Assembly (NCBI GenBank): GCA_963730935.1
Contig: CAVSTP010000004.1
Span: 1,536,001-1,600,000 of the forward strand
From: an uncultured Nitrospiraceae bacterium
Lineage (GTDB): Bacteria > Nitrospirota > Nitrospiria > Nitrospirales > Nitrospiraceae
DNA: 64,000 nt
Direction of reading: 5' to 3'
The first letter of the stretch is position 1; the number at the start of each line of letters is the position of its first letter. Below, in pieces: positions 37,981 through 56,177 of this stretch. The translations under genes were made by a program, and so were the position numbers. The notes under the pieces were generated by a model. The model had not been told where the DNA came from, did no database searches, and saw only the letters and a program-made list of their open reading frames with translations.

Positions 37981-39774
37981 TTAGAGGGTCTTCCCCTTCT
38001 TCTTGTTCGCGCGCCGCGTGAGAACCCACCCTTCCAGCAGCACGACGCCGAAGGCAATCACGACTGGATAGATATAGGTCTCTTTCGGGGTCGGGGGATT
38101 CATGAACGTGTAGTAGAACGCCGAGACAGCCATTTTCCGTCCGGCATCCCCGTTGTGTCCGTCCCAGGCGAAGAACACGGTCGGAATATACTGACCGACC
38201 TCGAAGAACGTGTCTTCATCGTAGTCCTGGTCCTTCTTGTTCCCGACAGGACGTTGAATCATCACGTACCAACGCCCGTTCTTCCATTCGCCCTTGAGCA
38301 CCTTGAGGTTCTCCTCATAGGTGTCGCGCTCCTCGAAGTCCTTGTCCCATCCCGTGCCCTTGAAGGCCCGGACGGAGCCATCGGCTTCCCACTTCACGAT
38401 GTCGACCGGGAACTGCTCGTTGGTCCCGAACAGATACCGCGGCTTGATCGGAGCAGGCAACTCCTTCCACTTCACCGGAGTTTCGATGGCAATGGCGTCG
38501 TTGTAGACCTTGTAATTGTTTTGATTCGACGCGATGGACCCTTCTTCGCCGGTCTTCGGATCCTGCTCCTTGATATCGACATTCACCTGTGTCGGAGCCC
38601 AGGGCAGTTTGCCTTCGGCAACGCTCTTGGTGCGATCATCCCACTCCAGGAGATACACCATGTACTTGTCGTTGTAGAGAGAACGGACCCAGATATCGTC
38701 GATGCGGTTGACGAAGTTCCTGGGCTTGTGCGTAATCTGCCCGCCCATCGCGATATAGCGCTTGGGCGCCTTTTGCCAGGCTTCATTTTCCATATCGACC
38801 GGAATTTCACCCTCGACCGGATCCGACGGCACAACGAAGTTGATCTTCGGCTTGTCGGTCAACGGATCGATGGAAAGGGGATTTCCATTGGCATCACGTT
38901 CACAGAGCGATTGGACGATGTTGGCAATGTCCCAACGCTCGTCGATGGTCGTGCTGTCCGCAAAAGACGGCATCGGGGTGCCGTTCACACCGGTCGAGAA
39001 GGTCCTGAAAATGTTCTTCACACTATATGGATCCTGCCGGCTGCCACGGAAGTTCCAGCACTTGTGCCAGTCGGCCGGCTGGATCGCAAAGCCCCAGTCG
39101 TCCTTGAGATTGAAGGCGTTTCCGTCCCCACGGCCTTCCACCCCATGGCACTCGATGCACTTCTTCTCCACGATCAGCTCGGCACCGCGCTTCAGACTCT
39201 CTTCGTTGGCCGCCTTCTGCTTGATATCGCCAAGCTGGAGGATCGTCTGGCTTTCCGACTGCTTATCCGTAAACTTCCGATCCTTGACTAACTGGGTCGT
39301 GACGAAGGACAGGACTTGAAGTCTCTGTTCTTCGGTCAAAATGCCTTCCCAGGAAGGCATGGCCGAGCCGGGCAAGCCGTGAGTGACCGTCTCGAACAGG
39401 TCGTTCTGTCCGGGAACGGGCTTGCGAGCGTCGAAGAGCGGTAGCTCACCACTCGCCGTATGACGAATTTTGAACGTGCCCTGATTGAAGTTGCGCGGCC
39501 GAGGCCAGAGGCGGTCTGCGCCTGGTCCATCGCCTGCCCCGTCGACCCCATGACACCAAACACACTTCGTAAAGTACACGCGCTTGCCCGCTTCGATCAT
39601 CTCGGCGGCAGGTTCCGGGGCCAAATCACCCTTCTTGAACCCTTCAGGCATGTCTTCGGCTCCGATCAGCGGAACCCCGAGACTTCCCGATGCCAGGATC
39701 ATACCGAAGGCGGCTGCGGCAACCACTCCTGCCTTCTGACTTGAACTGTTCATCATGTTTAGCCTCATCATCAA
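37981..39774 (-). CDS. Diheme cytochrome c fused to a DMSO-reductase type II heme-b (NxrC-like) domain with a C-terminal TM anchor
   Basis: Signal peptide; CVWCH and CIECH, each followed by PMP/AMP Met ligands; EbdC-like C-terminal domain (LEWDD, TVFFAWDG...RKMAVS); C-terminal TM. Confidence 0.85.
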   Translation of the reverse strand: MMMRLNMMNSSSQKAGVVAAAAFGMILASGSLGVPLIGAEDMPEGFKKGDLAPEPAAEMIEAGKRVYFTKCVWCHGVDGAGDGPGADRLWPRPRNFNQGTFKIRHTASGELPLFDARKPVPGQNDLFETVTHGLPGSAMPSWEGILTEEQRLQVLSFVTTQLVKDRKFTDKQSESQTILQLGDIKQKAANEESLKRGAELIVEKKCIECHGVEGRGDGNAFNLKDDWGFAIQPADWHKCWNFRGSRQDPYSVKNIFRTFSTGVNGTPMPSFADSTTIDERWDIANIVQSLCERDANGNPLSIDPLTDKPKINFVVPSDPVEGEIPVDMENEAWQKAPKRYIAMGGQITHKPRNFVNRIDDIWVRSLYNDKYMVYLLEWDDRTKSVAEGKLPWAPTQVNVDIKEQDPKTGEEGSIASNQNNYKVYNDAIAIETPVKWKELPAPIKPRYLFGTNEQFPVDIVKWEADGSVRAFKGTGWDKDFEERDTYEENLKVLKGEWKNGRWYVMIQRPVGNKKDQDYDEDTFFEVGQYIPTVFFAWDGHNGDAGRKMAVSAFYYTFMNPPTPKETYIYPVVIAFGVVLLEGWVLTRRANKKKGKTL

Positions 39775-39810: not shown

Positions 39811-40848
39811 TTAGTCCCAGGTACGGGGGTAGTAGCCCGTGTGCCAGTATTCGAACAGAACCACCTTCCAGATTTCATCGACCGTCAGGTGTTGCTCCCA
39901 GGGCGGCATAACCGAAGCCCAAGGGAACCCTTCGTTCGGCAATCCGATTCCTCCCTTGGACACACGCCAGAAAATAAACGTCTCCTGCAACTGGGCGATC
40001 GTTCCTGGATCCGTGAAGTTCGCAGGGATCGGGTTGAACGCGAAGGCATGTAAGCCGCGGCCGTTTAAATTGTCGCCGTGGCAGAAATGACAGTTCTGGA
40101 AGAAAATCTCTCCGCCCTCACGCACATACTTCAAATAACCCTGGCTCTTTTCATCCCAGGGATTGGCATTGGGCTTCATCAACCGACCCATGCCCTGTTC
40201 CACAATGTTGGCGTTCGTGTACTCCTGATCGTACTTCCCTTCGGGATTTACACGATACGGATTCTGCGACGTCTGCAACACATAGGTCTTGCCGTGCACC
40301 TTGGTGCTGGCCGGCGGGGCCGGATGCACCGTGCGCAACTCGATCGGCTCTTCCGACTTGGGCTTGAGGGCGTTGTAGGAAAATCCGCCGATGAGGATCG
40401 GGAGCAGGACGAGATAAGCGTAGCGCAGGAGCTTGTTGCCACCGGTCTGCGCATCGAGCACGTTCAGAATCGGCTGCTTGAATTTCTTCCAGTCTTCCTC
40501 GTTGGAGGACACCCACATGAAGACGGCGATGAGCGACACCGTCCCATACATGGCGCGCACACTGAACGGAATCGGAGGATAGACCCGAAACTTCAGATAC
40601 AGCAGGATGAATGCCCAGAAACCGATACCCTGCCAGAATCGAGGAAGGGCCATCCCCATCGAACTCAACATATAACTCAGGCCTGCGAAGCCGGCGACGA
40701 AGATCGTCAACTCCGCGAGCATCTGCATCGGCATGTAGCCTTCGACCAAGCGCACCGTATTGGACGGAACGACATCGAAGATCATCCCGACCAGCAGGAG
40801 GAGTCCGATGACCCCAACCAAGGCGCCCACTGACATCAATGCTTTCAT
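39811..40848 (-). CDS. Membrane-anchored monoheme cytochrome c
   Basis: About five N-terminal TM segments; CHFCH; SVMPPW. Confidence 0.88.
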   Translation of the reverse strand: MKALMSVGALVGVIGLLLLVGMIFDVVPSNTVRLVEGYMPMQMLAELTIFVAGFAGLSYMLSSMGMALPRFWQGIGFWAFILLYLKFRVYPPIPFSVRAMYGTVSLIAVFMWVSSNEEDWKKFKQPILNVLDAQTGGNKLLRYAYLVLLPILIGGFSYNALKPKSEEPIELRTVHPAPPASTKVHGKTYVLQTSQNPYRVNPEGKYDQEYTNANIVEQGMGRLMKPNANPWDEKSQGYLKYVREGGEIFFQNCHFCHGDNLNGRGLHAFAFNPIPANFTDPGTIAQLQETFIFWRVSKGGIGLPNEGFPWASVMPPWEQHLTVDEIWKVVLFEYWHTGYYPRTWD

Positions 40849-40882: not shown

Positions 40883-42193
40883 TTAGGAAATCTTCGGAGG
40901 CGGCGCACCCGCCTTCACCTGTGACAAATAGTCGACGATTTTCTTCAGCGCTCCGGCACTCAGCTTCTGCCCGAACACTTTCGGCATCAAGTTGTCAGGA
41001 AATCCCTTCACGACATAGGTGCTGGGAGAGACCACCGATTCCATGATGTATTCTGGAGTGCTGTGTGCAGTTCCTTTGTAAGCCGGATCCTTGAATCGAG
41101 TAGGCGCATTCGTCCCCTCTTCAAGCTTGGGACCTTGAGTACCAGTCGCACCTGGAATACCGGGAATCGTGTGGCAGACCGTGCACTGAGCCTTGGCAAA
41201 AATCTGGTCGACCGGCTCGGAGCCGTCTGCCAGCAGCGCGCTCGCGCCAGCCGGTTTATCTTCCTGCATCTTCGGACGATCGGCCTCCGGGATGAACTTT
41301 TCATATGACTTGGTAATTTCTTCGAACGACGGCGCATCACGGCCTTCCCGGACATAGAGCCAGGTGTCGACCGCCGCTAATTCGGGAAGCGACAGAGAGA
41401 TCGGTGGCTTGTGGATCTTCGGCATCGGGCTTTCTTTGTCGTTCGTGCCCTTCACGCCGTAGCCGGACACGACATAGCAGTTCGGACAGGCATGAGATTC
41501 GGCAATGTACTCCTGCCCGTTCTCTGCAGTTCCACAACCCGGACAGGCTTCTTTTTCGACAAAATCACGCTTGGCTGGATTCCCCTTTGAGTATTTGGGA
41601 TCTTCCAGCCGCTCCTTCCCCGCTCGTTCCGGAAGGCCAATCAAGTTCGGCGCACGCTCGCCCAACATCCCCGCGTGGAACGCATGGCACAGCGGGCATT
41701 GGCCCTTGCCGATCGCACCCTGCACCTTATTCTGCCCGATGCCGCCGAAGATAATTTTCTCACCTTCGTCGGCCAGCTGCTGCGGGGTCATCGAACTGAA
41801 GTCCAGCTTTTCTTCCTTTGGAGGAAACCCTCCCTCGACTTGAGGCAGCCAGTTTCCGTAACCGGAGAGAAACGCGGCCACGAAGAACATGAACCCGCCG
41901 ATCTTGAGCAGCGCGGCGAGGTTCGTAAAATAGAGGGCCATGACGAACGCCGTCAGAGTAATGATCACCAGCGACACGGGAAGCAGGCGGCTTTCGCCAT
42001 AGAAATTGGTCTTGTAATTGGCGATGGCAACGAAGAGGAAGAACGCCCCAATGATACCGATGAGGGTCTTGAAGGTTGCTCGCTTCTTGGCAACAGGATC
42101 ACCGATCGACACCTGGAAATATATGAGCAAGCCGACCAGCAGGGCCAGAACCACCCAGCCCATCGAGAGGGCTTCGTTAATCATATTACCCAC
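40883..42193 (-). CDS. Membrane-anchored diheme cytochrome c
   Basis: Four N-terminal TM segments; CPLCH and CTVCH with downstream MP ligands; extra CPGC and CPNC. Confidence 0.88.
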   Translation of the reverse strand: MGNMINEALSMGWVVLALLVGLLIYFQVSIGDPVAKKRATFKTLIGIIGAFFLFVAIANYKTNFYGESRLLPVSLVIITLTAFVMALYFTNLAALLKIGGFMFFVAAFLSGYGNWLPQVEGGFPPKEEKLDFSSMTPQQLADEGEKIIFGGIGQNKVQGAIGKGQCPLCHAFHAGMLGERAPNLIGLPERAGKERLEDPKYSKGNPAKRDFVEKEACPGCGTAENGQEYIAESHACPNCYVVSGYGVKGTNDKESPMPKIHKPPISLSLPELAAVDTWLYVREGRDAPSFEEITKSYEKFIPEADRPKMQEDKPAGASALLADGSEPVDQIFAKAQCTVCHTIPGIPGATGTQGPKLEEGTNAPTRFKDPAYKGTAHSTPEYIMESVVSPSTYVVKGFPDNLMPKVFGQKLSAGALKKIVDYLSQVKAGAPPPKIS

Positions 42194-42269: not shown

Positions 42270-44183
42270 TTAGTGGCTGCCAGCAGGTTGCGGCGCGCCG
42301 CCGGGAACTCCCACTTTCTCGCCGACCGGCACTTTCTTCGCCGTCAAACTGCCCAACCAGAAGACGAAGAGAATGCTGACCCAGAAGAACAGCACATTAA
42401 ATGAAATCATGTTCGCGGCGAATCCCACCGTGTGCGTATAGGCCCAGGGCGAGTTGTCCCGCATGATCTCATTGACGTGCCAGAACAGCCGGACCGAGGA
42501 GCGGATATACCCCATCAATCCCATCATCCAGGTGAAGGCCGTCGCGAGCATGATCAATGCGTACTGCGAACGAGCGGAAATCTTACCCCACTCGATCGGT
42601 CCCATCTGCTTGGCCCCCTTCATCATCACGCTATTCAGGGCGAACATGAAGAAGAGGCAGGACAGGGTGGTCGCCACTTGGGGAACGGAAAGCCCGACGC
42701 GGACGTTGGCTGGAATGTAATACCCGTAGATCGCCAGCCAGATGATGTTGACATAGGCAAAGAAGAAGAAACAGCCCATGAAGATGTTTCCGAACTTCGC
42801 CCAAGAGACGGTGGAAACCTTGTTCCCACGCATGTACCACACAAAACTCAAAACTGTGGTGGTAATGATGACGTTAATACCGCCGTTCTTGGCGGACATG
42901 ACGCCGTAGTTACCGAGCACCGGATGTTGCTGACCTCCCATCGCCTTCAACTCAGCGGGGGACATGACCATTGTATGCGGAGTGATGAACACCAGAAATC
43001 CGCAGACGAGAAGAAATACGAGGTACTTGATGTACCGCTGATACTTCTCAGCGCCACGCATCCGACCCATTGCCTGCCACAGATAGTAATTGGTGCTCAA
43101 GAAGAGGATGCCGATCATGGTGGCCTGAATGATGAACAGCCAGGCCAGCAGACCGCCCATCAATGTGATGCCCATCTGCTGGCGATACGCATAGACTTCA
43201 CGCATCAGCCAGTACCCAGCGAAGGGTAGCGGAATCAAGAATGCCACACCGAGCGCCATCGCGATATAACCCATCCAATCGTAATGAGCCCGATCTTCCT
43301 CGTTCTTGGCCGCGAGGAACTTATAGGCCGCATAGGCCGCGACGACACCGCCACCGAAGGCCATGTTGCCAAGGATGCGGTGCACGTTGAGCGGGTTCCA
43401 CAAGGCTGTGTGAATCACATGCCAGATATTGCCAAGGAACCGGCCCTGCTCATCGACGCCCGCGGGCGACATCATGAAGCCGATCCAGGAGTTGGCCAAC
43501 ATCATCAACAGGGTTCCGATGACGTTCAGAACCACCGACATGCTCAGATGGATCCACTTGAGGAATCCTTCCTTCATCTTGTCCCAACCGTAATAGTAGA
43601 TGTAGAGGGTGCCGCTCTCGGCTACGAACATCAGCGCATAAATGTGCATCACTGGACGGAAGATGCTGGAAAGATACCCGAAGAAAGCGGGATAGAGCGT
43701 TAGGAAGGTGAAGATCAGGATGCCGCCCAGGATCGCCGTCAACGAATAGGCCGTGAGGCTGATCTTGATGAAATCATAGGCCAACTGATCGTAGCGTTTC
43801 GCGAGTGCTTTGTCTTTACAGACGATCCCCATGAACTCGATCACCATACAGAAGATCGGCACGGCCAGCACGAAGCTGCCGTAGTAGAGGTGCTGCTGGT
43901 TCGCGAACCAGAGCAGCACGCGGCTCTCGAAGTTATACCGCGGATAGTCCCTGGGACCATCCGTGGTCTTCGGCGCCGGCGCACCAACCACAATGCCTTC
44001 GGTTTTGTAATAGACATCGCGTCCCTTCTCGACCTTGTCTCCATCCTTCTTTGCTCCGTCCGCGGCCGCTTCCTCACCGGCTGCCGGCGAGGGAATCGAG
44101 ACGACCACGGGAAGCAGGAGAAGGGTGATCATCGCGCAGAGCGCCATGATTGAAAACACCTTCTTGCCGGTTACAAGACCCAT
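42270..44183 (-). CDS. Cytochrome bd-like oxidase subunit (CydA homolog, no Q-loop)
   Basis: QQHLYYGSFVLAVP (helix-I His), WIH, ANSWIGFMMSPAG, NVHRILG, and C-terminal MGYIRSSVRLFW in place of GRQPW. AAGGAGG precedes the ATG at 44183. Confidence 0.85.
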   Translation of the reverse strand: MGLVTGKKVFSIMALCAMITLLLLPVVVSIPSPAAGEEAAADGAKKDGDKVEKGRDVYYKTEGIVVGAPAPKTTDGPRDYPRYNFESRVLLWFANQQHLYYGSFVLAVPIFCMVIEFMGIVCKDKALAKRYDQLAYDFIKISLTAYSLTAILGGILIFTFLTLYPAFFGYLSSIFRPVMHIYALMFVAESGTLYIYYYGWDKMKEGFLKWIHLSMSVVLNVIGTLLMMLANSWIGFMMSPAGVDEQGRFLGNIWHVIHTALWNPLNVHRILGNMAFGGGVVAAYAAYKFLAAKNEEDRAHYDWMGYIAMALGVAFLIPLPFAGYWLMREVYAYRQQMGITLMGGLLAWLFIIQATMIGILFLSTNYYLWQAMGRMRGAEKYQRYIKYLVFLLVCGFLVFITPHTMVMSPAELKAMGGQQHPVLGNYGVMSAKNGGINVIITTTVLSFVWYMRGNKVSTVSWAKFGNIFMGCFFFFAYVNIIWLAIYGYYIPANVRVGLSVPQVATTLSCLFFMFALNSVMMKGAKQMGPIEWGKISARSQYALIMLATAFTWMMGLMGYIRSSVRLFWHVNEIMRDNSPWAYTHTVGFAANMISFNVLFFWVSILFVFWLGSLTAKKVPVGEKVGVPGGAPQPAGSH

Positions 44184-44265
44184 GGGATACCTCCTTGATG
44201 CATTCCGATAAAATCTTTTAAACATGCCTAGTCACTCTTAATGAGGGTACGACTCTCCGCGGCTG

Positions 44266-44388
44266 TTACTTGCGGAACAGGTACCAGTAATCCAACCCTT
44301 GCATATCCATCAGATAGTGATCGACCAGCGTGAAATACGCGACGCAGATCACGGTCGAAATCAGGATATAGAAAATCGTCTGCCCCAT
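44266..44388 (-). CDS. Small single-TM membrane protein (40 aa), not in the ORF track
   Basis: MGQTIFYILISTVICVAYFTLVDHYLMDMQGLDYWYLFRK; strong RBS GAGGAGGAG; directly upstream of the CydA-like gene. Confidence 0.75.
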   Translation of the reverse strand: MGQTIFYILISTVICVAYFTLVDHYLMDMQGLDYWYLFRK

Positions 44389-44451
44389 CTTCAGCTCCTC
44401 CTCAACTCAACGAAAGACGTAAGGTTAATTCACCCATTCCGTGCCCTGGGC

Positions 44452-44577
44452 TCAGCAGGGGCACTGAATGCCGGCAAACCAATAGAAAAACCACAGGCCC
44501 GTCGCAGCGGTGATGTAGAAAATCATTTTTCCGATTTTGACCTTGATCTCACTGTCTGGAGCGGTTGCCGTTGCCAT
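44452..44577 (-). CDS. Small single-TM membrane protein (41 aa) ending in CPC, not in the ORF track
   Basis: MATATAPDSEIKVKIGKMIFYITAATGLWFFYWFAGIQCPC; RBS AGGAGAAGGAG. Confidence 0.75.
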   Translation of the reverse strand: MATATAPDSEIKVKIGKMIFYITAATGLWFFYWFAGIQCPC

Positions 44578-44701
44578 CACTGTCTCCTTCTCCTGGTAGG
44601 GAATAAAAATGCGTGTGATTTACCTCGGCCCGTTTCTTGACACACACGGATCCGTATGTTATTCAAAATTCGTCGTTGGGCGCGTAACCGCAGGGAAAAC
44701 C

Positions 44702-44806
44702 ATGAATAAAAACTCAAAAGTGTTCGACATTATAGTTTTGGCTGGTATGGTTGTCAATATCATTCTGGCCGTGTTTCTGATCCTCTATTACTTCGATTTT
44801 CTCTAG
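44702..44806 (+). CDS. Possible 34-aa hydrophobic peptide
   Basis: MNKNSKVFDIIVLAGMVVNIILAVFLILYYFDFL; TTGACA upstream at ~44637. It overlaps the opposite-strand promoter, so it may be spurious. Confidence 0.35.
   Translation: MNKNSKVFDIIVLAGMVVNIILAVFLILYYFDFL
44729..44757 (-). promoter_or_regulatory. Consensus sigma70 promoter for the microprotein/bd-like/cytochrome operon
   Basis: TTGACA-ACCATACCAGCCAAAAC-TATAAT: perfect -35, 17-nt spacer, perfect -10. Confidence 0.8.
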
Positions 44807-44808
44807 AC

Positions 44809-45709
44809 TTAGCTCAGCTTTTCCCTAGTTCCAGATCCCGCAAAACTGCCCGAAATCGCGCACCGAAATCCGATTGTTTCGTCGCGGAAATCGGGCACCA
44901 TTTTGCTCCGGCTGGTGATACGAATATCACCCCCGCTCGTGGTGTACCCTCCCCCTCTCATGACTCGGTAAGTCCCAAATTCCGGGCTAGGGGGATCCTT
45001 GTCGGGAGACTCCTTGTAATAGGCCTCCTGGTACCAATCACCCACCCATTCCATCACGTTACCGGCGCCATCCATGACTCCGTAAGGGCTCTTATCCGTT
45101 TCAAACGTTCCCACACGTGCGGTGACGTCGTGGCCATCTTGCACCCGAGCCCAGTTGGCTCCGTTCGGCTTTTCCAGATTTCCCCATGGCCACAGCCGGC
45201 CGTCCGTGCCTCGCATGGCCTTCTCCCATTCGGCTTCGGTGGGCAGCCGCTTGCCTTTCCAACGGCAATACTCATTCGCATCATCCCAGGATACATACAC
45301 GACAGGCTGATTCGGTCCCCGCATCTTGCTCGATGCTCTTCGCGTAGCGCGAAGGAGGCGCAGCCTTGCGGTGGCCAGTGGCGAGGACGAATTGCTGGTA
45401 CTGATAGTTGGTGACTTCGAAGCGGTCAATCGAGAACGTGTCGACAGTGATCGTCCGTTGCGGTTGTTCGTCAAACCCGCCGCTCATCGTGCCGCGTAGA
45501 AACGGCCCAGCGGGGATCGTGACCATTTCATCCTGAATCGGTTCTTCCTGTGAGGTGGATTCGGATTCGGAAGGGACGGAACCCTCCGTGGCCGACGGAT
45601 CCTCTTCATAAGGAGTCAGCGTCGTTCCACGAAGGATGCCCATGATGGGGAGAGCAGCAAAGGCGACGACCACGAGGAGAAAGGCGACCTTGAATTTCGT
45701 TTCAAGCAT
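44809..45709 (-). pseudogene. Membrane-anchored FGE-sulfatase (SUMF1/NirV-like) domain protein, one frameshift at ~45331 (likely error)
   Basis: MVTIPAGPF..G...DEQPQR...FEVTN then [26 protein letters not shown]...DGAGNVMEW...RGG...GFRCA. Confidence 0.85.
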
Positions 45710-45718
45710 GGCGTTCCA

Positions 45719-46640
45719 TTAAGACGTCGGCGCGTGGCCTCCAGGCTCGAGGTCGCTGGCACAGCGGATCCCGATCGTAATATCTGTGCGCCAGTGTTTC
45801 GCCGCGAATCGTTTAGATAACCGCGCGTTATGCTCGGTCTCCCGCCACGATCCGCCCCGAACCACGCGCAGATCGCTTTCGCCTTCCGGACCCTTTCGGA
45901 TCACGGTAGGGAGATTTTTTGTAATAGGTTTCGTCGTACGTGTCGTTGACCCACTCGGCGACGTTGCCGGTCATGTCATATAACCCATAGGGACTGCGCC
46001 CGGCATCGAACGAGCCCGGCGGAGCCAGATATTTGTACCCGTCTTCGCTGCCATCGACATTCGCGCCGTTGGTGACGAACTTATCGCCCCAAGGGTACGT
46101 TCGCTTGCCTTCACCGCGTCCGGCCTTTTCCCATTCGGCTTCCGTCGGAAGACGCTTCCCCGCCCAACGGCAGTAGGCCAACGCTTCATCCCATGAGACG
46201 CTCATGGCGGCGAATTCCGGCTTGAGGAGCTTGGACTGATCGTCTTCGAACACTTCAATTCTGGGAGCCTGGCGTTTGGTCATCTTGGCGAACCGCGTGT
46301 ATTCTTCCTGCGTCACTTCTTTCCGATCGAGGAAAAAACCCTTGAGAAACACCTGATGTTCAGGCACCTCATCCGGGTCGCCGTCCTGGCTGCCCATCAT
46401 GAACGGTCCTTCAGGGATTTGAACCATTTCGCGACCTTCATCGCCCATCTTGGTCTTGTACATCGAGTAGTCCTGCGCGGGAACATTGCTGGCTGCAGGT
46501 CGGGCCTCAGTTTTCACCGACTGGGCGAGTTCTTTCATCTTATAGGCTTTGTTCGACTCATAGAGCATCATGACGATCATGAGAATGAAAGACCCGAAGA
46601 CGAAGATGATGGATCCGATCAAGACGCCTTTATTTTCCAT
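45719..46640 (-). pseudogene. Membrane-anchored FGE-sulfatase domain protein, one frameshift at ~45892 (G run; likely error)
   Basis: [39 protein letters not shown]; the C-terminus RVVRGGSW...GIRCA is in ORF 45719..45904. Confidence 0.85.
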
Positions 46641-47731: not shown

Positions 47732-49594
47732 TCACACCTCTTGCGAGGAAGCCGGCGCGAACGTCTGTGAAGGCGTATCGAACAATTCTTCTCCCAGTTC
47801 CTGCTGCTGTCCCCGCTGGCACATCCAAAACAGGGCGAGCACCGCGCTCCAAAACACGACCATGTTGAGCGTCACCATCTTGGCGGCAAACCCAAGTTCC
47901 GGCGTGAAGGCCCAGGGCGAGACGTCGGCCATCACTTCGTTAACGTGCCAGGACAACCGGCCTGATGACCGGATGTATCCCATGAGACCCATCACCCATG
48001 TAAAGGCGCCGGCCAGAGCGAACAGCACCACCATGCCTCGAACCGAAATTTTGCCCCATTGCACGGGCCCGTGTACGAGCGATCCTTTGAGCATGGCACG
48101 ATTGATCGACAGGCTGGCGACGATGACGGTCAGCGTCGTGACCGCTTGCGGCGTCGAGAGGCCCACGCGCAGTTTAGCGGGCAGATAAAAGCCATAGACC
48201 GAAAGCCAGGCCACATTCACCAGTCCCACGGCGAAGAGCGTCCCGATCAGGATGTTGCCGGTCTTGACCCAGGATACGGTCATCGTGCGATTCGCCCGCC
48301 GATAGATAGAGGTAACTCAAGGCCGTGAGGAGAATCATGACGTTAACCGCGCCGTTCTTGGCGGACATGACGCCGTAATTCCCCACCACCGGATGCTGCG
48401 CGCCGCCCATCGCTTTGAGCTCGCCCGGCGGACATCAAGACCGTATGCGGGGTCAACCAAATGAACAGTGCCAGGGTCAAGGCCCCGACCAGGACCTGGT
48501 AATACGATTGATACCGCTCCCCTCCCTTGATCCGCGCCATGCTTTGCCAGATGTAGTAGTTGATGCCGAGCAACAGGGCGCCGATCAGCAGGGCTTGGAC
48601 GACGAAGAGCCATGTCAACAATCCACCCATCATCGTCACGCCCATGCTTTGGCGGAACGCGTACACGGAGCGCATCAGCCAATAGCCGGCGATCGGCATC
48701 GGCAGGAGTGCGCAGACGGTTACGAACAAGAAAATGTAGCCGACCCAATCGAAGTAGGCGCGCTCGCCATCCGTCTTGCTCGTGAAGAAGCGGTAGCAGG
48801 CATAGGCCAGCACGACGGCGCCGCCCGACATGATGTCCGCCAGGAAGCGATGGACGTTCAACGGATTCCAAAGCGCGGAGTGGAGCAGGTGCCAGCCGTT
48901 CCCCAGAAACCGGCCTTGGGCATCGACGCCGGCCGGCGACATCATGAAGGCCGCCCAGGAATTGGCGAGGAGGAGGAGTGCCGTTCCAAAGATGTTAGTC
49001 AGGATGCCGATGGCCGCATGGATCCACTTCAAGCCGGGCTCCGCCATGCGGTTCCAGCTGTAGTAATAGAGAATGAGCAGCAAGGGATTCGCCGACGAAT
49101 ACGATGGCATAGGCCGGCATGAACGCCTTAAACGTTCCCCCCATGTAGTTCATAAAACTGGGATAGAGCCAAAGAAACATCCCGAGCATCAGACTGCCCA
49201 CGACAGCCGTGACGGACAGCGCGAGCAATGCGACTTTCGCCAGGTCTCTGGCCAAACCGTCATAGCGCAGCGACAACCCCGGCTTGTTCGTCAGCAATCC
49301 CAGAAACTCCAGCAGGGCGCAGAAGATCGGCAACGCCAGCACGAAGCCGCCGAAGTAGGTGTGCTGCTGCGTGACAAACCAGACGACGAGACGGCTGTCG
49401 AACGAGCCGATCCGTGAATACACCGTGTCCGTCGGCGACGGCGCGGCAGGACCTTGGGGAGTCCCCGGTACTTGGTAGTACAGATCCGCAGTATCCTCTG
49501 CGTGCACAGGAAGCGGAAGCCCAATACCCGCCACAAGTCCGCAGGCCAACACTGCAAGAAGAAAAGCCGTTGAGAGGCATCTATACGTCGACAT
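47732..49594 (-). pseudogene. Second cytochrome bd-like (CydA homolog) subunit, interrupted by about three frameshifts (~49090, ~48425, ~48305)
   Basis: Four ORF pieces colinear with 42270..44183: QQHTYFGGFVLALP, WIH, NSWAAFMMSPAG, PLNVHRF, QHPVVGNYGVMSAKNG, MGYIRSSGRLSWHVNE. Confidence 0.85.
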
Positions 49595-49601
49595 TATGAT
49601 T

Positions 49602-50646
49602 CTACCCCTTCGAAGCGCCGGCAACAGCAGACCCGGACGACTTGCTCAGAATTCCCATGACAAACGGACACCGGAGCAAGGAGGGGCTCAGGCTGACACC
49701 TTGCCGCTCCTCGACCTGCCGCCGATGGCCTAAGATAGTATCCGTAAAGCGCCATCAAGCCGGCGACCAGCCCGCCACCACCAATGGCGTAGGACGTGGG
49801 GACGCCCGGCTGCTTCAGCAGGAAAATCACGACGCCCGCCAAGACCAGATAATAGGTCGAGGCGAATGCCAAGCCTGGCCACCACCAGTATTTCAGCAGC
49901 TCAGCCGGCTTGGTTTCCATCAATCCATCCAGCCATGAGTCCGACGGTCTCAGACCGCCGAAATAGGCGCAGAGAGCGAGGGCGCCGGCGAACACCGTCA
50001 CGGCCGAGACCTGCACGAGCATCGCGGCCTGCTGATTGTCGAAGACCGCTCCTAATGAGGCGCCCCCGGCGCCGACCATGAGTCCCACCGCAATCCACGG
50101 TCCGACGATCGTCGCGTGGGTGGCCAGCAGGCTCCGCAGGGCAAGGCCGTTCGGAAAGGTGGGACAGGGCCGTCCCATCAAGGCCACCTTGCGCACATAG
50201 CCGATTTCGAACGCGTCACGGGCGACTGCCGTACAGGAAATGATGATGGCCATCATCGCAGGCCCGTCTGGATGTTTCAGATAGTCGTAGCCAACGAGCC
50301 ATAGGAGTGCGAGGACGAGAAGCGACAGCTGCACAGCATAGACAAACCCGATCCATCCGGCCATCCATGTCAGGAGCCTTCTGCCGTCCTCGCGGAAGAG
50401 CTGAGCCCACGCCGTCCCGCGTCCCACTCGGTAGGCCAGCATCGCCGTCAGCAGGCCCACAATGCCACTGATCAGCAGCAGCACCACCGGTTCCGTCAGC
50501 GGCACCAGGTGTTTGGCCACTCGATAAATTCCAAAGGCGACCAGGCCAGGGACGAACATGACCAGGCGCTTCTGCTTCCGGACAGCATCCTCGGTCACAG
50601 CCAGGCTGAGACTAGGAAGAACCCGCAATGCCATTCGATGCAGCAT
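49602..50646 (-). CDS. Polytopic membrane protein of unknown function (probable frameshift near the C-terminus, ~49730)
   Basis: About eight hydrophobic segments; HPDGPAMM and RDAFEIG; the alternate frame continues GHRRQVEE...RCPFVMGIL. Confidence 0.65.
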
Positions 50647-51250: not shown

Positions 51251-51972
51251 TCATCCGATCTTGCCTGGATACAAGATGTAGAGCATCGTGTACGTCGTCG
51301 TGCCGGTCACAAAGAGGACGCAATAGATGATCATCGTGAAGCGTCCGAGCGCTCGATGGCGTTGCCCGCCGTCCGGCCAAATACGCTGGATCGTCATTTC
51401 CACTGCAAACACAACCGCGATCAGCGCCAGAAGTCCGACCCACACTACGAGTCTTCCCATCCGAAAACGATCTGCTGCCACGAGGTACGACCAAGTACAA
51501 CGCGACCAGCGGCACAGAGCATCCCGAAGATCATACCGACTCTTCCCCACGTCGTCTGAAGGAGCGGCTCGCTGAGGATCCGTCGTCCCTTGCTCGATCA
51601 CCTGGGCGCGAAACCCCAGCACGATCATGTAGACCGCCATGACCAATCCAATAATCACCAGAATGATATGAACAAGTGAGAGCGGGATAAACACATAGTC
51701 GTAGAGGCTTGCGATCCGCCGAATCCTTCTTTTCCTTCAAAGGCCAGCACGCCTAATTGCCGGAAGAGATAGTAGCTCACGAAGAACCCCAGCATGGCCA
51801 CCATGCCGCCCAACATCAGCCAGTGATGGGCATCCGCCTGGCCGCTTCCGCGCCTTGAATCCAGCCGATCACGAAGAGCCCGGTAAAGAACGTCGCCATG
51901 AGCTGGCTGAGATCGGCCCCGACCGTGGCGTGAGTTCCAAAAAATCCCGGGTTCTCTTAACCAGTCCATCAT
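51251..51972 (-). pseudogene. DUF420 (CtaM/YozB-like) membrane protein with several frameshifts
   Basis: Joined frames: MMDWLREPG...ADLSQLMA...AHHWLML...FFVSYY...EGFGG...YDYVFIP...HIIL...HRALGR...TGTTTY.MLY. Confidence 0.7.
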
Positions 51973-51980
51973 GATGTCCG

Positions 51981-52973
51981 TTACCGCTCGCAGGTCTTCA
52001 TCACCTTGGACGCACTGCCGTTCGTTCCAATTCACTGACTGAAACGAAACCCGGCTTTCGTCATCCACTGCATCGCGTCCGCCGTCTTGTAGCAGGCCCC
52101 TTGCTGGGTATTGACCAGAATGTGCACGGCGAACGCCGTCGTCCAGGCGGGACCGGTGCCCGCCTCATCGAGAAAGCGATCCTTGATCACGAGTCGCCCG
52201 CCTGGCGCCAGATGTTCATAAACCTTTTTGACGAGCGCCTGATTCGTCTCGAAGGTCTGGTAGTGCAGAATGTCGGACATGAGCGCGACATCGTACGGAC
52301 CGCCAAGTTCATCCAGGTTAAAGTCTCCACCCAGCATCGCGATTCGAGATTCGAATCCGGCATCTTTGACTGTTTTCTCCGCCAGAGGAAGCGTCGCGGG
52401 AAGATCGAACACCGTCGCGGTAAGTTCGGGATAGACCTGGCAGAAGGCAATCGCGTTGGTGCCGGCCCCGCCACCCAAATCCAGGAGACGGACGCGTCCC
52501 TCGAGTCGCAATCTCTTGGCCAGTTCCGGTCCGCTCTGCTGGCCGATGCGATGGAGCACGGCCAGCACGTTCGCCCCTAAGGCTGGGTCGGTTTCGAACA
52601 CATGCCGGTCCACTGTCCGTTTCCCCGAACGGATCGTGTCTTCCAACTTCCCCCAATTATTCCATTCTGCGTCATGCAGGAGCAGGAGATGACCGATATA
52701 TTGCGGGGAATGGCGGACGAGATGTGTTTCTGCCGCAGCGCTGTTGCCGTAGAACTCCGCCGTCTTCGTCAGGAGGCGCATGGCGACGAGGGCATTCAAG
52801 AGCAGCACAAGCGTTGGCTCGTGAGCGCCGATTTTGGCTGCCACTTCGGTTGCAGTTTTGGGCTTCCCGTCAAGAGCCGAGAAGACGTCTAGCCGGACTG
52901 CGGTCAGGAGAATCTTGGTCTCCCAGTAATAGCCCAGCTGGAAGATTTCGGCGAGGCATAGTTCCCGTGACAC
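51981..52973 (-). CDS. SAM-dependent O-methyltransferase (dimerisation + Methyltransf_2); C-terminal end uncertain owing to indels
   Basis: AVRLDVF, LLDLGGGAG, FDLP, GDF, ILH, LAPGGRLVI. Confidence 0.85.
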
Positions 52974-53182: not shown

Positions 53183-53977
53183 TTACTTGAGCTCAGCCTT
53201 CAGGTTGGCTGTTCCACCGTCTGCCACTTCGACTTCAAACTCGGTCTTCTTGCCCTTTCCAACAAACGGGTGCCAGGCCACGACCTTGTGCTTGCCGGGA
53301 GGCACATCCTTGATCTCGAACGTCCCGTCGTCCTTTACCACCGCGAAGTGGGGGTTCGAAACCGGGAGGAAGAACGACTGCATGAACTCATGCTGGTCGC
53401 ACTGCAGACGATAGAACCCGTCCTTTTCTGCACCACCACGGAAGGTGACGGGCTTGTCCAGCTTGTCGCCCTTCTTCGCGAGACCGATGTTGAAGCCGGT
53501 CGCAGAGGTGGAACCCTTCACGGTGAAGCTGTGAGGATTGTGGAGCACGCCCTGCACCGACTTGGGATCGTCGGGATCCGAGTCATGGTTTTCCACATGG
53601 AAGTTCTTGGTGTTCACCACCACGCCGGAATACGGCAGAAACTCGCAGAATTCGGCGATGACTTCCGTCCCTTTGTAGCCGTCCATGAATGCCTTGTCTT
53701 CGACATCCACGACCGCCACGACAGCGTTCTTCAACCCGCCATCCTTGCCCACTTCAATCGTGGGGAAGAACCGCTTGTCCCCATCCATGAGCTCCTTGTG
53801 GGGATTCTTCGGGCAGAACTTCGGGTTGGGGAACTTCGCGAAGGAAAACTCTTTCTTCTCAGCCTTCCCCGCGTAGGTGACTTTGCCGGCGATTGTCCCG
53901 CCTGCAAAGGAGGTGACAGGTGCCGCGACGAACGCGACGGCTGCCACGCCAAATACGATGGATAACGCACTCTTCAT
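53183..53977 (-). CDS. Exported carboxypeptidase-regulatory-like domain protein with a cupredoxin-like insert
   Basis: Signal peptide; GTIAGKV, GGLKNAVV, LHNPH, CDQHEFM, NPHFAV...G.FEIKDVPPG...AWHP. Confidence 0.8.
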   Translation of the reverse strand: MKSALSIVFGVAAVAFVAAPVTSFAGGTIAGKVTYAGKAEKKEFSFAKFPNPKFCPKNPHKELMDGDKRFFPTIEVGKDGGLKNAVVAVVDVEDKAFMDGYKGTEVIAEFCEFLPYSGVVVNTKNFHVENHDSDPDDPKSVQGVLHNPHSFTVKGSTSATGFNIGLAKKGDKLDKPVTFRGGAEKDGFYRLQCDQHEFMQSFFLPVSNPHFAVVKDDGTFEIKDVPPGKHKVVAWHPFVGKGKKTEFEVEVADGGTANLKAELK

Positions 53978-54148
53978 GTTACTGCCTCCTTGTGATTAAA
54001 CGAAAAACCCGACATTAATGGATATTAGCTCGCTGTCCCCCGTCTTCATTCCGGTTACGAGAGGAACAAGAAACCGCTCCCTCTCTGGGTACTCGATTGA
54101 CGACTTGGCTGGCGAGGCTGGTTCTAGACGGAGTAGATATACTGAATG

Positions 54149-55522
54149 TTACCGTGGGATGTCAACAGGTTGTAACCTCGCCCCGGCGGCCCCTTTCACC
54201 GGCGGAAGCACATGGAGCAATGCGCCGGCGGCAGTGGCCCGGACGGCTTCGTTTTGATCGTGCAGAGCGGCTTTCAGGTCGGCCACGATCGCCTGATCGC
54301 CGATATGGCCGAGGGAACGAAGGGCGACGGTTTTTGGACCAGGAAGCGGATCTTCGGCGAGCGCCGACAATAGGGAGATGGCCCCCTGGCGATTCGCCTT
54401 GGTGGCCTTCCCCATGGCAAACGCAGCCGACGATCGTGAAGCCGGGTCATTGTGCTGGGCAAGCGCCAATAGCGTTGGCCCGACCGTCTCGAACGGCTGG
54501 CCCAGCTGCAATAGGCCTGCGGCCATTGCAGCTCGCACACTGAATACGGCGTCATTCATTTTGCGCATCAATGCTGGCACCGCATCTTTGTTGCCAAGGT
54601 CGGCAAGCGCAGCCGCGGCGGATTCACGGACGGGGGGTACGGGATCATCGAGCAGCTTCTCGATGTCTTCCCGTGCCTCGTTTCGATGGAGATGGCCAAG
54701 CCCTCTGGCGGCGGCCGCGCGCACCGAAGGCTGATTGTAGGTCAACAGACCCCTCATCAACGGCGTGGCCCGCTGATCGTTGAGGTCCGCCATGGTACGA
54801 AGGGCCTCCGCCCGATCTTCCGGATTGGGCGCCTCGGCCGCCTTGCGCAATTCCTCCCAAGCTTCCGTGCGCCCGAGCCGGATCAATGCCCCGAAGGCGG
54901 CAATGCGGACGGTTGCCAATTCGTCCTTCGCAGCCCGTTCGATTAGCGGAAGCACGGACCGGTCTGTGCTCTTTCCCAGCGCCTTGACCGCCCGTGCTTT
55001 GACAATGCCCGCCTGATCTTCCAGCGCGCCTCGCAACTTTTTCGACTTGCGGCCCTTGTCTGATCGTCCCAACCCTTCGACAGCCAATACCCTCACCGGT
55101 CCGGAACCATCGCTCAACCCGTCTTCGAAATACGGTACTGTTTCATCGGAATCGATTTCCTTCAGCGCCGTATAGGCCGCCCCGCGCATTTGCTCCCGCA
55201 TGTCCTTGACGAGCACCACAATGAACCCAAGCGCCACCTCGCGCAGCAGCGGGACATCGTCTTGACGGAGTCCCGCCTCAAGCTTGTCATATTCCGCAAG
55301 CGCCTCTTGAGGTGTTCCGAGCTTTACCAGCGTCCGTACCTTCAAGCGGCGTACCTCGGGCGATGCCTGCTCGTCCTGACTCAGCTTGGAAAGGCCATCG
55401 ACAACCTGCTGGTATTTCTTCTCGTCGTACAACGCCTTGAGGTCTGGCGGCACAGAAGACGAACCGGCTCCCAGCGCGAAGAACGTCAGAACGACGAGCG
55501 CAGTCCATGTCATGTGACTCAT
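54149..55522 (-). CDS. Exported HEAT/PBS-lyase repeat protein
   Basis: Signal peptide; repeated D....VR..AA.ALG.L units. Confidence 0.85.
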   Translation of the reverse strand: MSHMTWTALVVLTFFALGAGSSSVPPDLKALYDEKKYQQVVDGLSKLSQDEQASPEVRRLKVRTLVKLGTPQEALAEYDKLEAGLRQDDVPLLREVALGFIVVLVKDMREQMRGAAYTALKEIDSDETVPYFEDGLSDGSGPVRVLAVEGLGRSDKGRKSKKLRGALEDQAGIVKARAVKALGKSTDRSVLPLIERAAKDELATVRIAAFGALIRLGRTEAWEELRKAAEAPNPEDRAEALRTMADLNDQRATPLMRGLLTYNQPSVRAAAARGLGHLHRNEAREDIEKLLDDPVPPVRESAAAALADLGNKDAVPALMRKMNDAVFSVRAAMAAGLLQLGQPFETVGPTLLALAQHNDPASRSSAAFAMGKATKANRQGAISLLSALAEDPLPGPKTVALRSLGHIGDQAIVADLKAALHDQNEAVRATAAGALLHVLPPVKGAAGARLQPVDIPR

Positions 55523-55526
55523 TCCG

Positions 55527-56177
55527 TTATCCACGTTGCCCTCGAACCGTCGCAAGCTGCCGCTTTTGGTACCCTGGCGGTTCGTTGAAATACTCAGGGG
55601 GCTGCGGAGACCATCTGATCCGTTCATAGACGAATGACCAGTCGCGGTCGCGGCTGACGAGCTTGAGCACCGTGCCTGTTTCCACATCGACCCATTCGAA
55701 CCACTGTTCCATTCGTCCATGCCGGTCTGTTTGGACTTCATATAGCTGTGCGGGCCGTCCTACAACCGTTGCGTCGCCGACCAGTGTCCTGCCACGTTCT
55801 CCTGGAAGGGTCGGCTGCATCGGCAGCACATCGTCTGGATCGAGCGGCGTGACCAGTAACTCCTTCTGTTGCGCCAGCAGGTACCAGGCTTCCTCACGAT
55901 CCAACCGGATGATCTCGATTGCCGCGTAGCCATAGTCCGTGCGGATCGCGTATTTGTATTCGAGCCTGAAACGGTCGCCCTTCGCAAACACCTGCGCCTG
56001 ATACTGTTTTCCGTTCACCTGCTTGATGAGGGTTCCCGAAAACTCGTGCGGGGAGGCCATCTGTTTTTCGGCGACTGCAGGAACAGGGGGTATCCAAAGC
56101 GTAGTGGCAAAGGTCGAGGCAAGTAGGAAAGAGGCCAGGGACTTGGCAGAAGCAATCGGTTCGCGGCTTTTCAACAT
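55527..56177 (-). CDS. Exported hypothetical protein (DUF4412/LolA-like)
   Basis: Signal peptide; beta-rich; VGDATVVGR..EWVD...F.EPPGY pattern. Confidence 0.6.
   Translation of the reverse strand: MLKSREPIASAKSLASFLLASTFATTLWIPPVPAVAEKQMASPHEFSGTLIKQVNGKQYQAQVFAKGDRFRLEYKYAIRTDYGYAAIEIIRLDREEAWYLLAQQKELLVTPLDPDDVLPMQPTLPGERGRTLVGDATVVGRPAQLYEVQTDRHGRMEQWFEWVDVETGTVLKLVSRDRDWSFVYERIRWSPQPPEYFNEPPGYQKRQLATVRGQRG

Follow-up and report, generated by a model that had tools for sequence, protein, structure and literature searches.

Three small membrane proteins encoded with the bd-like enzyme of nitrite and sulfur oxidisers are probably overlooked small subunits

Small single-helix proteins accompany several members of the CydA superfamily, and the genes of the CydX type are described as often overlooked in annotation (PMC8951039, PMC4325964). 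CydX-type proteins are very variable (PMC4325964). CydX and CydS bind to transmembrane helices (TMs) 1 and 4-7 of CydA, near haem b558 (PMC8951039). CydA-like proteins of the OR-N family, defined in bioRxiv 2021.01.16.426971, include the bd-like_3 type of Nitrospira, whose cluster is given as four genes, with small subunits unmentioned, in the relevant passages of PMC6606698. Transcription of the bd-like_3 cluster ranks with the highest in Nitrospira, and the cluster has been proposed to couple the oxidation of nitrite to the reduction of oxygen or to reverse electron flow (PMC6606698, PMC10839748); the corresponding passages of PMC10839748 state the subunit composition and function of the bd-like complex to be unconfirmed. 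A search of the PDB and the literature found neither an OR-N structure nor a purified bd-like_3 complex.

In the present study we describe three small genes, A, B and C, at a bd-like_3 locus in a window of 64,000 nucleotides from an uncultured Nitrospiraceae bacterium (Table 1). The host operon corresponds to the bd-like_3 / alt_NxrC_2 cluster of Nitrospira, as matched to the available text and Table S1 rows of PMC6606698. Its CydA-like product (the host protein) has the features of the OR-N family, namely partial CydA homology, a retained haem d His, ~14 helices and cytochrome c neighbours, and its structural model resembles solved CydA in part only. According to the domain matches of the window genes, cydB is absent from the operon. 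For the CydA-like gene, a strong AAGGAGG site at 44181-44196 suggests that a start at 44183 (637 aa) is likelier than that at 44225. A preliminary description of this DNA had reported two single-TM frames of ~40 aa with Shine-Dalgarno sites between a consensus promoter and the CydA homologue, and both were confirmed at their positions; the length of A depends on the start codon (41 aa from ATG, 42 aa from a GTG one codon 5'). ORF C had been overlooked, and contains the promoter of A, B and the CydA-like gene in antisense. The description of A and B as unannotated holds for this window, but elsewhere homologues are present as hypothetical or uncharacterized proteins in NCBI, UniRef and IMG. No Pfam or NCBIfam family covers A, B or C, and matches in the ESM Atlas at >=0.9 were unnamed hypothetical clusters only.

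Table 1. Position of the small genes, their signals and the host operon in the window.
Feature	Position	Strand	Basis or remark
ORF A, 41-aa single-TM protein, QCPC C-terminus	44452..44577	-	ORF and one hydrophobic stretch
ORF B, 40-aa single-TM protein	44266..44388	-	ORF and one hydrophobic stretch; predicted binder of the CydA-like protein
ORF C, 34-aa single-TM protein	44702..44806	+	divergent, just upstream of A-B
Shine-Dalgarno of ORF A, AAGGAG	44584..44589	-	6 nt 5' of ATG
Shine-Dalgarno of ORF B, GAGGAGGAG	44395..44403	-	6 nt 5' of ATG
Sigma-70-type site, 12/12, TTGACA-17-TATAAT, serving A, B and the CydA-like gene	44729..44757	-	antisense within the codons of ORF C
Likely weaker promoter of ORF C, TTGACA-17-TATTCA with TG	44637..44665	+	opposes the A-B promoter; suggested by conservation
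CydA-like OR-N-family protein, bd-like_3 type, longest frame 651 aa	42270..44225	-	partial Cyt_bd_oxida_I match
Dihaem cytochrome c, membrane-bound	40883..42193	-	same operon
Monohaem cytochrome c, membrane-bound	39811..40848	-	same operon
Dihaem cytochrome c, EB_dh domain, alt_NxrC_2 type	37981..39774	-	same operon

At 47732-49624, 44809-46640 and 51251-52068 of the window, a second bd-like paralogue lies in three frames, and splits are found in both FGE-domain genes as well as in the DUF420 gene. RNA contigs differ by single-base indels at 45330 and 45893, so that these frame breaks look like assembly errors.

A and B are real genes under purifying selection. Pairwise dN/dS in four families of the Nitrospirales was 0.08-0.13 for A, 0.10-0.16 for B and 0.01-0.08 for C, with 0.027 for the host gene, and most variation in the A and B alignments of these families is found at third codon positions. 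Of 46 related loci, 44 have a Shine-Dalgarno match of at least four letters ahead of A, and 45 have one ahead of B. The exact antisense frame is open in 39/46 loci for A and 26/46 for B, and frame +2 of B in 33/46. Since alternative frames are often open, openness alone is a weak argument, and the case is carried by dN/dS, the Shine-Dalgarno sites and the conserved motifs. Conservation, synteny and dN/dS had been put forward as a check on the two frames, and all three speak for them: A and B are kept in related genomes, with intact order and a dN/dS between 0.08 and 0.16.

The three genes extend well beyond the genome in which they were noticed, and the complete set is found in Nitrospirota and Nitrospinota as well as in Proteobacteria, marine sulfur oxidisers among them; A by itself accounts for 298 clusters at 50% identity. 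In 47 orthologous loci of the Nitrospirales, drawn from four families of the order, both A and B are located upstream of the CydA-like gene in 46, the sole miss having 56 nt of upstream sequence, and C is present in 45, the two misses having 56 and 418 nt. A wider, non-random sample consisted of the best 80 of 599 relatives of a divergent host protein, mostly from Alpha-, Gamma-, Delta- and Zetaproteobacteria, and its 75 loci with at least 600 nt upstream were scored. Among these best-matching loci, A was found in 71, B in 72 and both in 70; 33 loci had C at a distance of up to 4 kb, divergent in 23 and co-oriented in 10. No locus of the wider sample breaks the order A-B-host. Three of the five loci without the A and B pair carry the genes elsewhere in the genome, and A was not found in the flank upstream of the host gene in L153 and L156. 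Where C was outside the fetched flank it was found elsewhere in all five genomes checked. The profiles match once per locus in a search of 28,479 six-frame segments. Whole operons combining an OR-N gene with cytochromes c are widespread among Proteobacteria, including marine sulfur oxidisers (L100-L179), with carriers such as Sedimenticola, Ca. Thiodiazotropha, Thiomargarita, Magnetococcus and Rhodospirillaceae, and are often accompanied by HEAT-repeat and carboxypeptidase-regulatory-like genes resembling those at positions 53183-55741 of the window.

Inheritance of A and B goes with this CydA-like type, not with its distant paralogues. In 201 Nitrospirota genomes, A and B accompany the CydA-like gene in 49 of the 52 that have this type (the three misses are at contig ends), none of the 15 with only more distant OR-N paralogues has A and B, and of 134 genomes that lack a host match, 2 have A. 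The cassette-linked host proteins form a clade separate from the distant OR-N copies in the tree. No statistic was put on these co-occurrence counts because the genomes are kin; the loci are related by descent rather than independent. A second copy of the bd-like_3 gene, 86% identical and with the upstream block missing, is present in L048-L050.

The block is also retained where it is detached from the operon. Among 61 genomes of the Nitrospinota, taken from the phylum to which a Nitrospinae record belongs, 55 have B and 57 the CydA-like gene. A adjoins B in 18/18 loci and C is divergent in 13/18, and none of 12 host loci had A, B or C inside 1.5 kb. In several of the loci L188-L205, the block lies between a DUF420 gene and a pair of genes encoding a histidine phosphatase and an ABC ATPase.

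Each of the three proteins has its own conserved motif: G16-x3-F20...F30-F31-x-W33 in A, F19-x3-D23-x3-M27-x2-Q30-G31-L32 in B, and D9-x5-G15-x3-N19 in C. Lys or Arg is found on the N-terminal side of the helix in 131/143 A and 106/107 C sequences, which points to an N-in/C-out orientation for both, and in 54/149 B sequences, for which the orientation is less clear. In three loci (L159:3097-3600, L163:3108-3602 and L164:3139-3639), A continues into a c5-like class I cytochrome c, for which it serves as N-terminal anchor, and these fusions lie between C and B. The fusion agrees with a periplasmic C-terminus of A, and places A near electron carriers. The preliminary description had pointed to three segments, IFYI shared by A and B, QCPC in A and DHYLMDM in B; all are present as written, but IFYI and the His of B are not conserved. 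IFY[IV] is found in 52/146 A and 10/149 B sequences, and with a profile probability of 23% between A and B (3% between A and C) neither a meaningful shared motif nor a relation of A and B as paralogues was upheld. The genome of the window also has two fragments resembling the TM start of A (G000:C4:4256-4324, minus strand, and C4:1796731-1796796, plus strand), the first of which has ten residues common to A and then diverges; these stray fragments may be captured copies or the remains of decayed ones.

Structural modelling predicts a binding site for B on the CydA-like protein, at residues 477-522 in the numbering of the 651-aa frame. The complex model contained B as the scored partner, host residues 90-635, A and two haems, and three controls were run, one of them with the host replaced. 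B on the CydA-like protein scored 0.63, versus 0.00 for the best of the three controls. The mark set for this score is reached by 116/157 solved and 2/215 mismatched pairs, a calibration that applies only roughly here because of our own alignments and the inclusion of haem. Contact agreement between runs was at least 96%, with a partner pLDDT of at least 82. In the model, residues 3-37 of B run along two helices of the host (model chain 388-433), with F19 and D23 against Asn493, a residue kept in 84/85 sequences, and Met27 against residue 515. The homology of the host protein to solved CydA spans profile positions 10-239, and the predicted site of B is outside it. No OR-N structure was found in the PDB that the model could have memorised. 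Confident contacts were not listed for A, which speaks neither for nor against its binding, as only B was the scored partner. A test of covariation of B with the CydA-like protein over the 25 predicted contacts gave a z of 0.15 versus 0.00 +/- 0.23, with too few effective sequences for a verdict. Co-folding with the CydA homologue, suggested earlier as a check, supports the binding of B at the level of prediction.

The likely role of A and B, and probably of C, is in our view that of small structural subunits, unrelated to CydX, within the OR-N bd-like_3 complex. They would be single-helix parts of a complex made up of the CydA-like protein and three c-type cytochromes, inserted N-in/C-out and packed outside the helix bundle. 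By analogy with CydX in canonical bd oxidase, they may stabilise the assembled complex. B would sit on two helices in the OR-N-specific C-terminal half, presenting its F19/D23/M27 face to Asn493; for A and C we infer binding, and for the set a stable stoichiometric membership and the stabilising role. What had been suggested at first, overlooked subunits or assembly peptides, perhaps CydX- or CydS-like, is retained in so far as these are conserved genes tied to the bd-like complex, with B predicted on the CydA-like protein; kinship to CydX, CydS or CydH is not supported.

A and B are probably translated, as indicated by a published table and an assignment by position and mass. Table S1 of PMC8407350 lists two 1-TM proteins of N. 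moscoviensis, NITMOv2_3644 (4.80 kDa) and NITMOv2_3645 (4.57 kDa), as uncharacterized; they were matched to B and A, respectively, by position, mass and TM count rather than by sequence. Their transcripts rank 162 and 73, and that of bd-like_3 ranks 48. NITMOv2_3645 has 2 unique whole-cell peptides with 12 spectra, and NITMOv2_3644 has none in whole cells and 1, 10, 2, 7 and 10 in five membrane digests (all from the same table), although as many as 10 'unique peptides' can be reached with 40 aa only if modified or semi-specific forms are counted. If the assignment holds, these peptides supply the translation evidence that the preliminary description had called for. No A or B among the loci examined was an exact-mass match to the N. 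moscoviensis proteins. The two are undiscussed in the available text of PMC8407350, and the RefSeq-based table of PMC6606698 skips both. In N. marina a single small gene is called here (IMG 2597407154), and it is missing from the 7 neighbouring rows of the N. marina proteome (PMC8115632 data set). Soil metatranscriptome contigs, which carry no strand, start or level, cover 44184-44817 (X1) and 44245-44532 (X2). No link of these peptides to the bd-like complex was found in the literature searched, from which most subscription journals and the supplements of the OR-N paper were absent, or in the available passages of PMC12342949, PMC9040806, PMC3578206, PMC5322542 and PMC6431628.

A, B and C could alternatively be transient assembly factors, which sit on the CydA-like protein while it is inserted into the membrane or loaded with haem, and then leave the mature complex, and this we regard as rather unlikely. 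The predicted binding of B fits stable and transient association alike, and the Nitrospinota block, which is not co-transcribed with the CydA-like gene, adjoins a gene of the DUF420 type, to which CtaM, required for an aa3 oxidase of S. aureus, belongs (PMC4958251). A single cassette also serves genomes with two close paralogues. However, the transcript levels assigned to A and B are within 1.5- to 2.7-fold of bd-like_3, the genes head the structural operon with strong Shine-Dalgarno sites in most lineages, and the fusion of A to cytochrome c fits a permanent subunit better.

A role as metal or redox subunits, in which the CPC or His tail of A holds copper or haem, or closes a disulfide bond, or Met27 of B ligates haem, is distinctly improbable. 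In its favour, 119/146 A tails have CPC (64) or His (55), CPC is kept in families f1-f3 of the Nitrospirales and replaced by a His pair in f4, a whole cytochrome c takes the place of the tail in the three fusions, and Met27 of B is 95% conserved. Against this, 27 of the 146 A tails have neither, CPC and His are also lacking from the 13 Nitrospinota A tails that end in SVWR, and neither A nor B has an invariant set of Cys, His or Met ligands, Met27 being the only near-invariant one. In the model Met27 faces residue 515 of the CydA-like protein, which has invariant His and Met of its own. The DHYLMDM segment of B, proposed earlier as a source of metal ligands, is not supported in that role, as its His is found in only 70/149 and its second Met in 73/149 sequences. 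Because CPC is conserved in part of the range only, a metal or redox role is possible and cannot be the core function of A; the earlier suggestion of metal- or redox-active peptides is therefore kept as a possibility for the tails of A, and is supported neither for the His/Met cluster of B nor as a core function. The B proteins of the Nitrospinota have a Gly-rich tail with a final His.

A bolder form of the subunit reading, which we hold to be unlikely, is that bd-like_3 works as a machine of seven chains, CydB not among them. All three microproteins, unrelated to one another, would be obligatory, and A would serve as a modular post for electron entry, fitted with CPC, a His pair or a whole cytochrome c according to the electron donor of each lineage. 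If true, an enzyme of the bd superfamily would have gained a peptide-borne redox or metal site, and the lack of any reconstitution of the complex from the four annotated genes would be explained. More generally, if A, B and C are subunits, expressing, purifying or modelling the complex from the four annotated genes is incomplete, and the three small genes provide concrete additions, a predicted site to mutate and markers for blue-native gels.

A sigma-70 scan of the window returned 2 sites versus 1.9 expected, so that the count alone is not significant; the 12/12 site is present in 63/67 Nitrospirales loci. A conserved TTGACA is also found ahead of C in the opposite direction, and as it faces the A-B promoter the two 5' ends would overlap by ~50 nt, suggesting facing promoters with overlapping transcripts. 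The orientation of C flips among lineages, C being the first co-oriented gene in some and divergent here. We rejected the idea that ORF C is conserved only because the promoter is, since the embedded boxes are lost through codon changes in f4, where a 9/12 site is located in the intergenic stretch and the protein is retained (dN/dS 0.011), and since C is co-oriented elsewhere. Outside the Nitrospirales the embedded promoter reaches 11/12 in 0/40 loci, and it finds no support as a cause of the inversion of C in other phyla. That the small proteins are regulatory leader peptides or membrane regulators tuning the operon, with the facing promoters at C as a control element, is very unlikely: the small genes do head the operon and the two promoters overlap C in Nitrospirales, but conservation of the protein motifs extends to phyla in which the block has no linkage to the operon, the proteins persist where the embedded promoter is absent or lost (the 40 loci and f4), and B has a predicted protein partner.

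Kinship of A and B to CydX, CydS or CydH was not supported. No Pfam match to CydX, CydZ or other bd small-subunit families was obtained at E 0.05 with 85 A and 85 B members, PDB profile searches with A and B gave no match to the solved bd small-subunit chains at E 10, and PF08173 has no match at this locus; membership in the CydX, CydS, CydH or CydZ families was rejected. That A and B are highly divergent homologues of CydX, CydS or CydH is scarcely credible, for although they share size and single-TM plan with a variable group (PMC4325964), they match no family or chain, and lie upstream in an operon without cydB, and the predicted site of B is outside the CydA-homologous part of the host.

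The comparison with these systems is thus one of analogy. CydX, AppX and CydS are likewise single-TM proteins of 30-40 aa, encoded with and packing on a subunit of the CydA superfamily, a packing that is predicted here for B. CydX and CydS occupy their known site on CydA, whereas B is predicted on helices past the CydA-homologous region. The cydX gene follows cydB in the cydAB operon, whereas A and B are upstream of the CydA-like gene, a position unlike those described for cydX, cydY and cydZ (PMC4325964), in an operon that has cytochromes c, and three small genes versus one in CydX systems. CydH (YnhF) of E. coli bd-I is a single helix of ~3 kDa encoded away from the operon (PMC8951039), as the Nitrospinota cassette is, but it has no sequence match to A or B, sits between CydA TMs 1 and 9, and is confined to proteobacterial enzymes with a long Q-loop. 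The N-terminal helix of CcoP in cbb3 oxidase (FixP_N) is an aromatic TM that anchors a periplasmic cytochrome c, and is similar to the A-cytochrome c fusions; FixP_N gave weak matches in 5/85 A members (best E 0.0056), which may be compositional. A and B would accordingly stand outside the CydX family, and by analogy their function may be alike.
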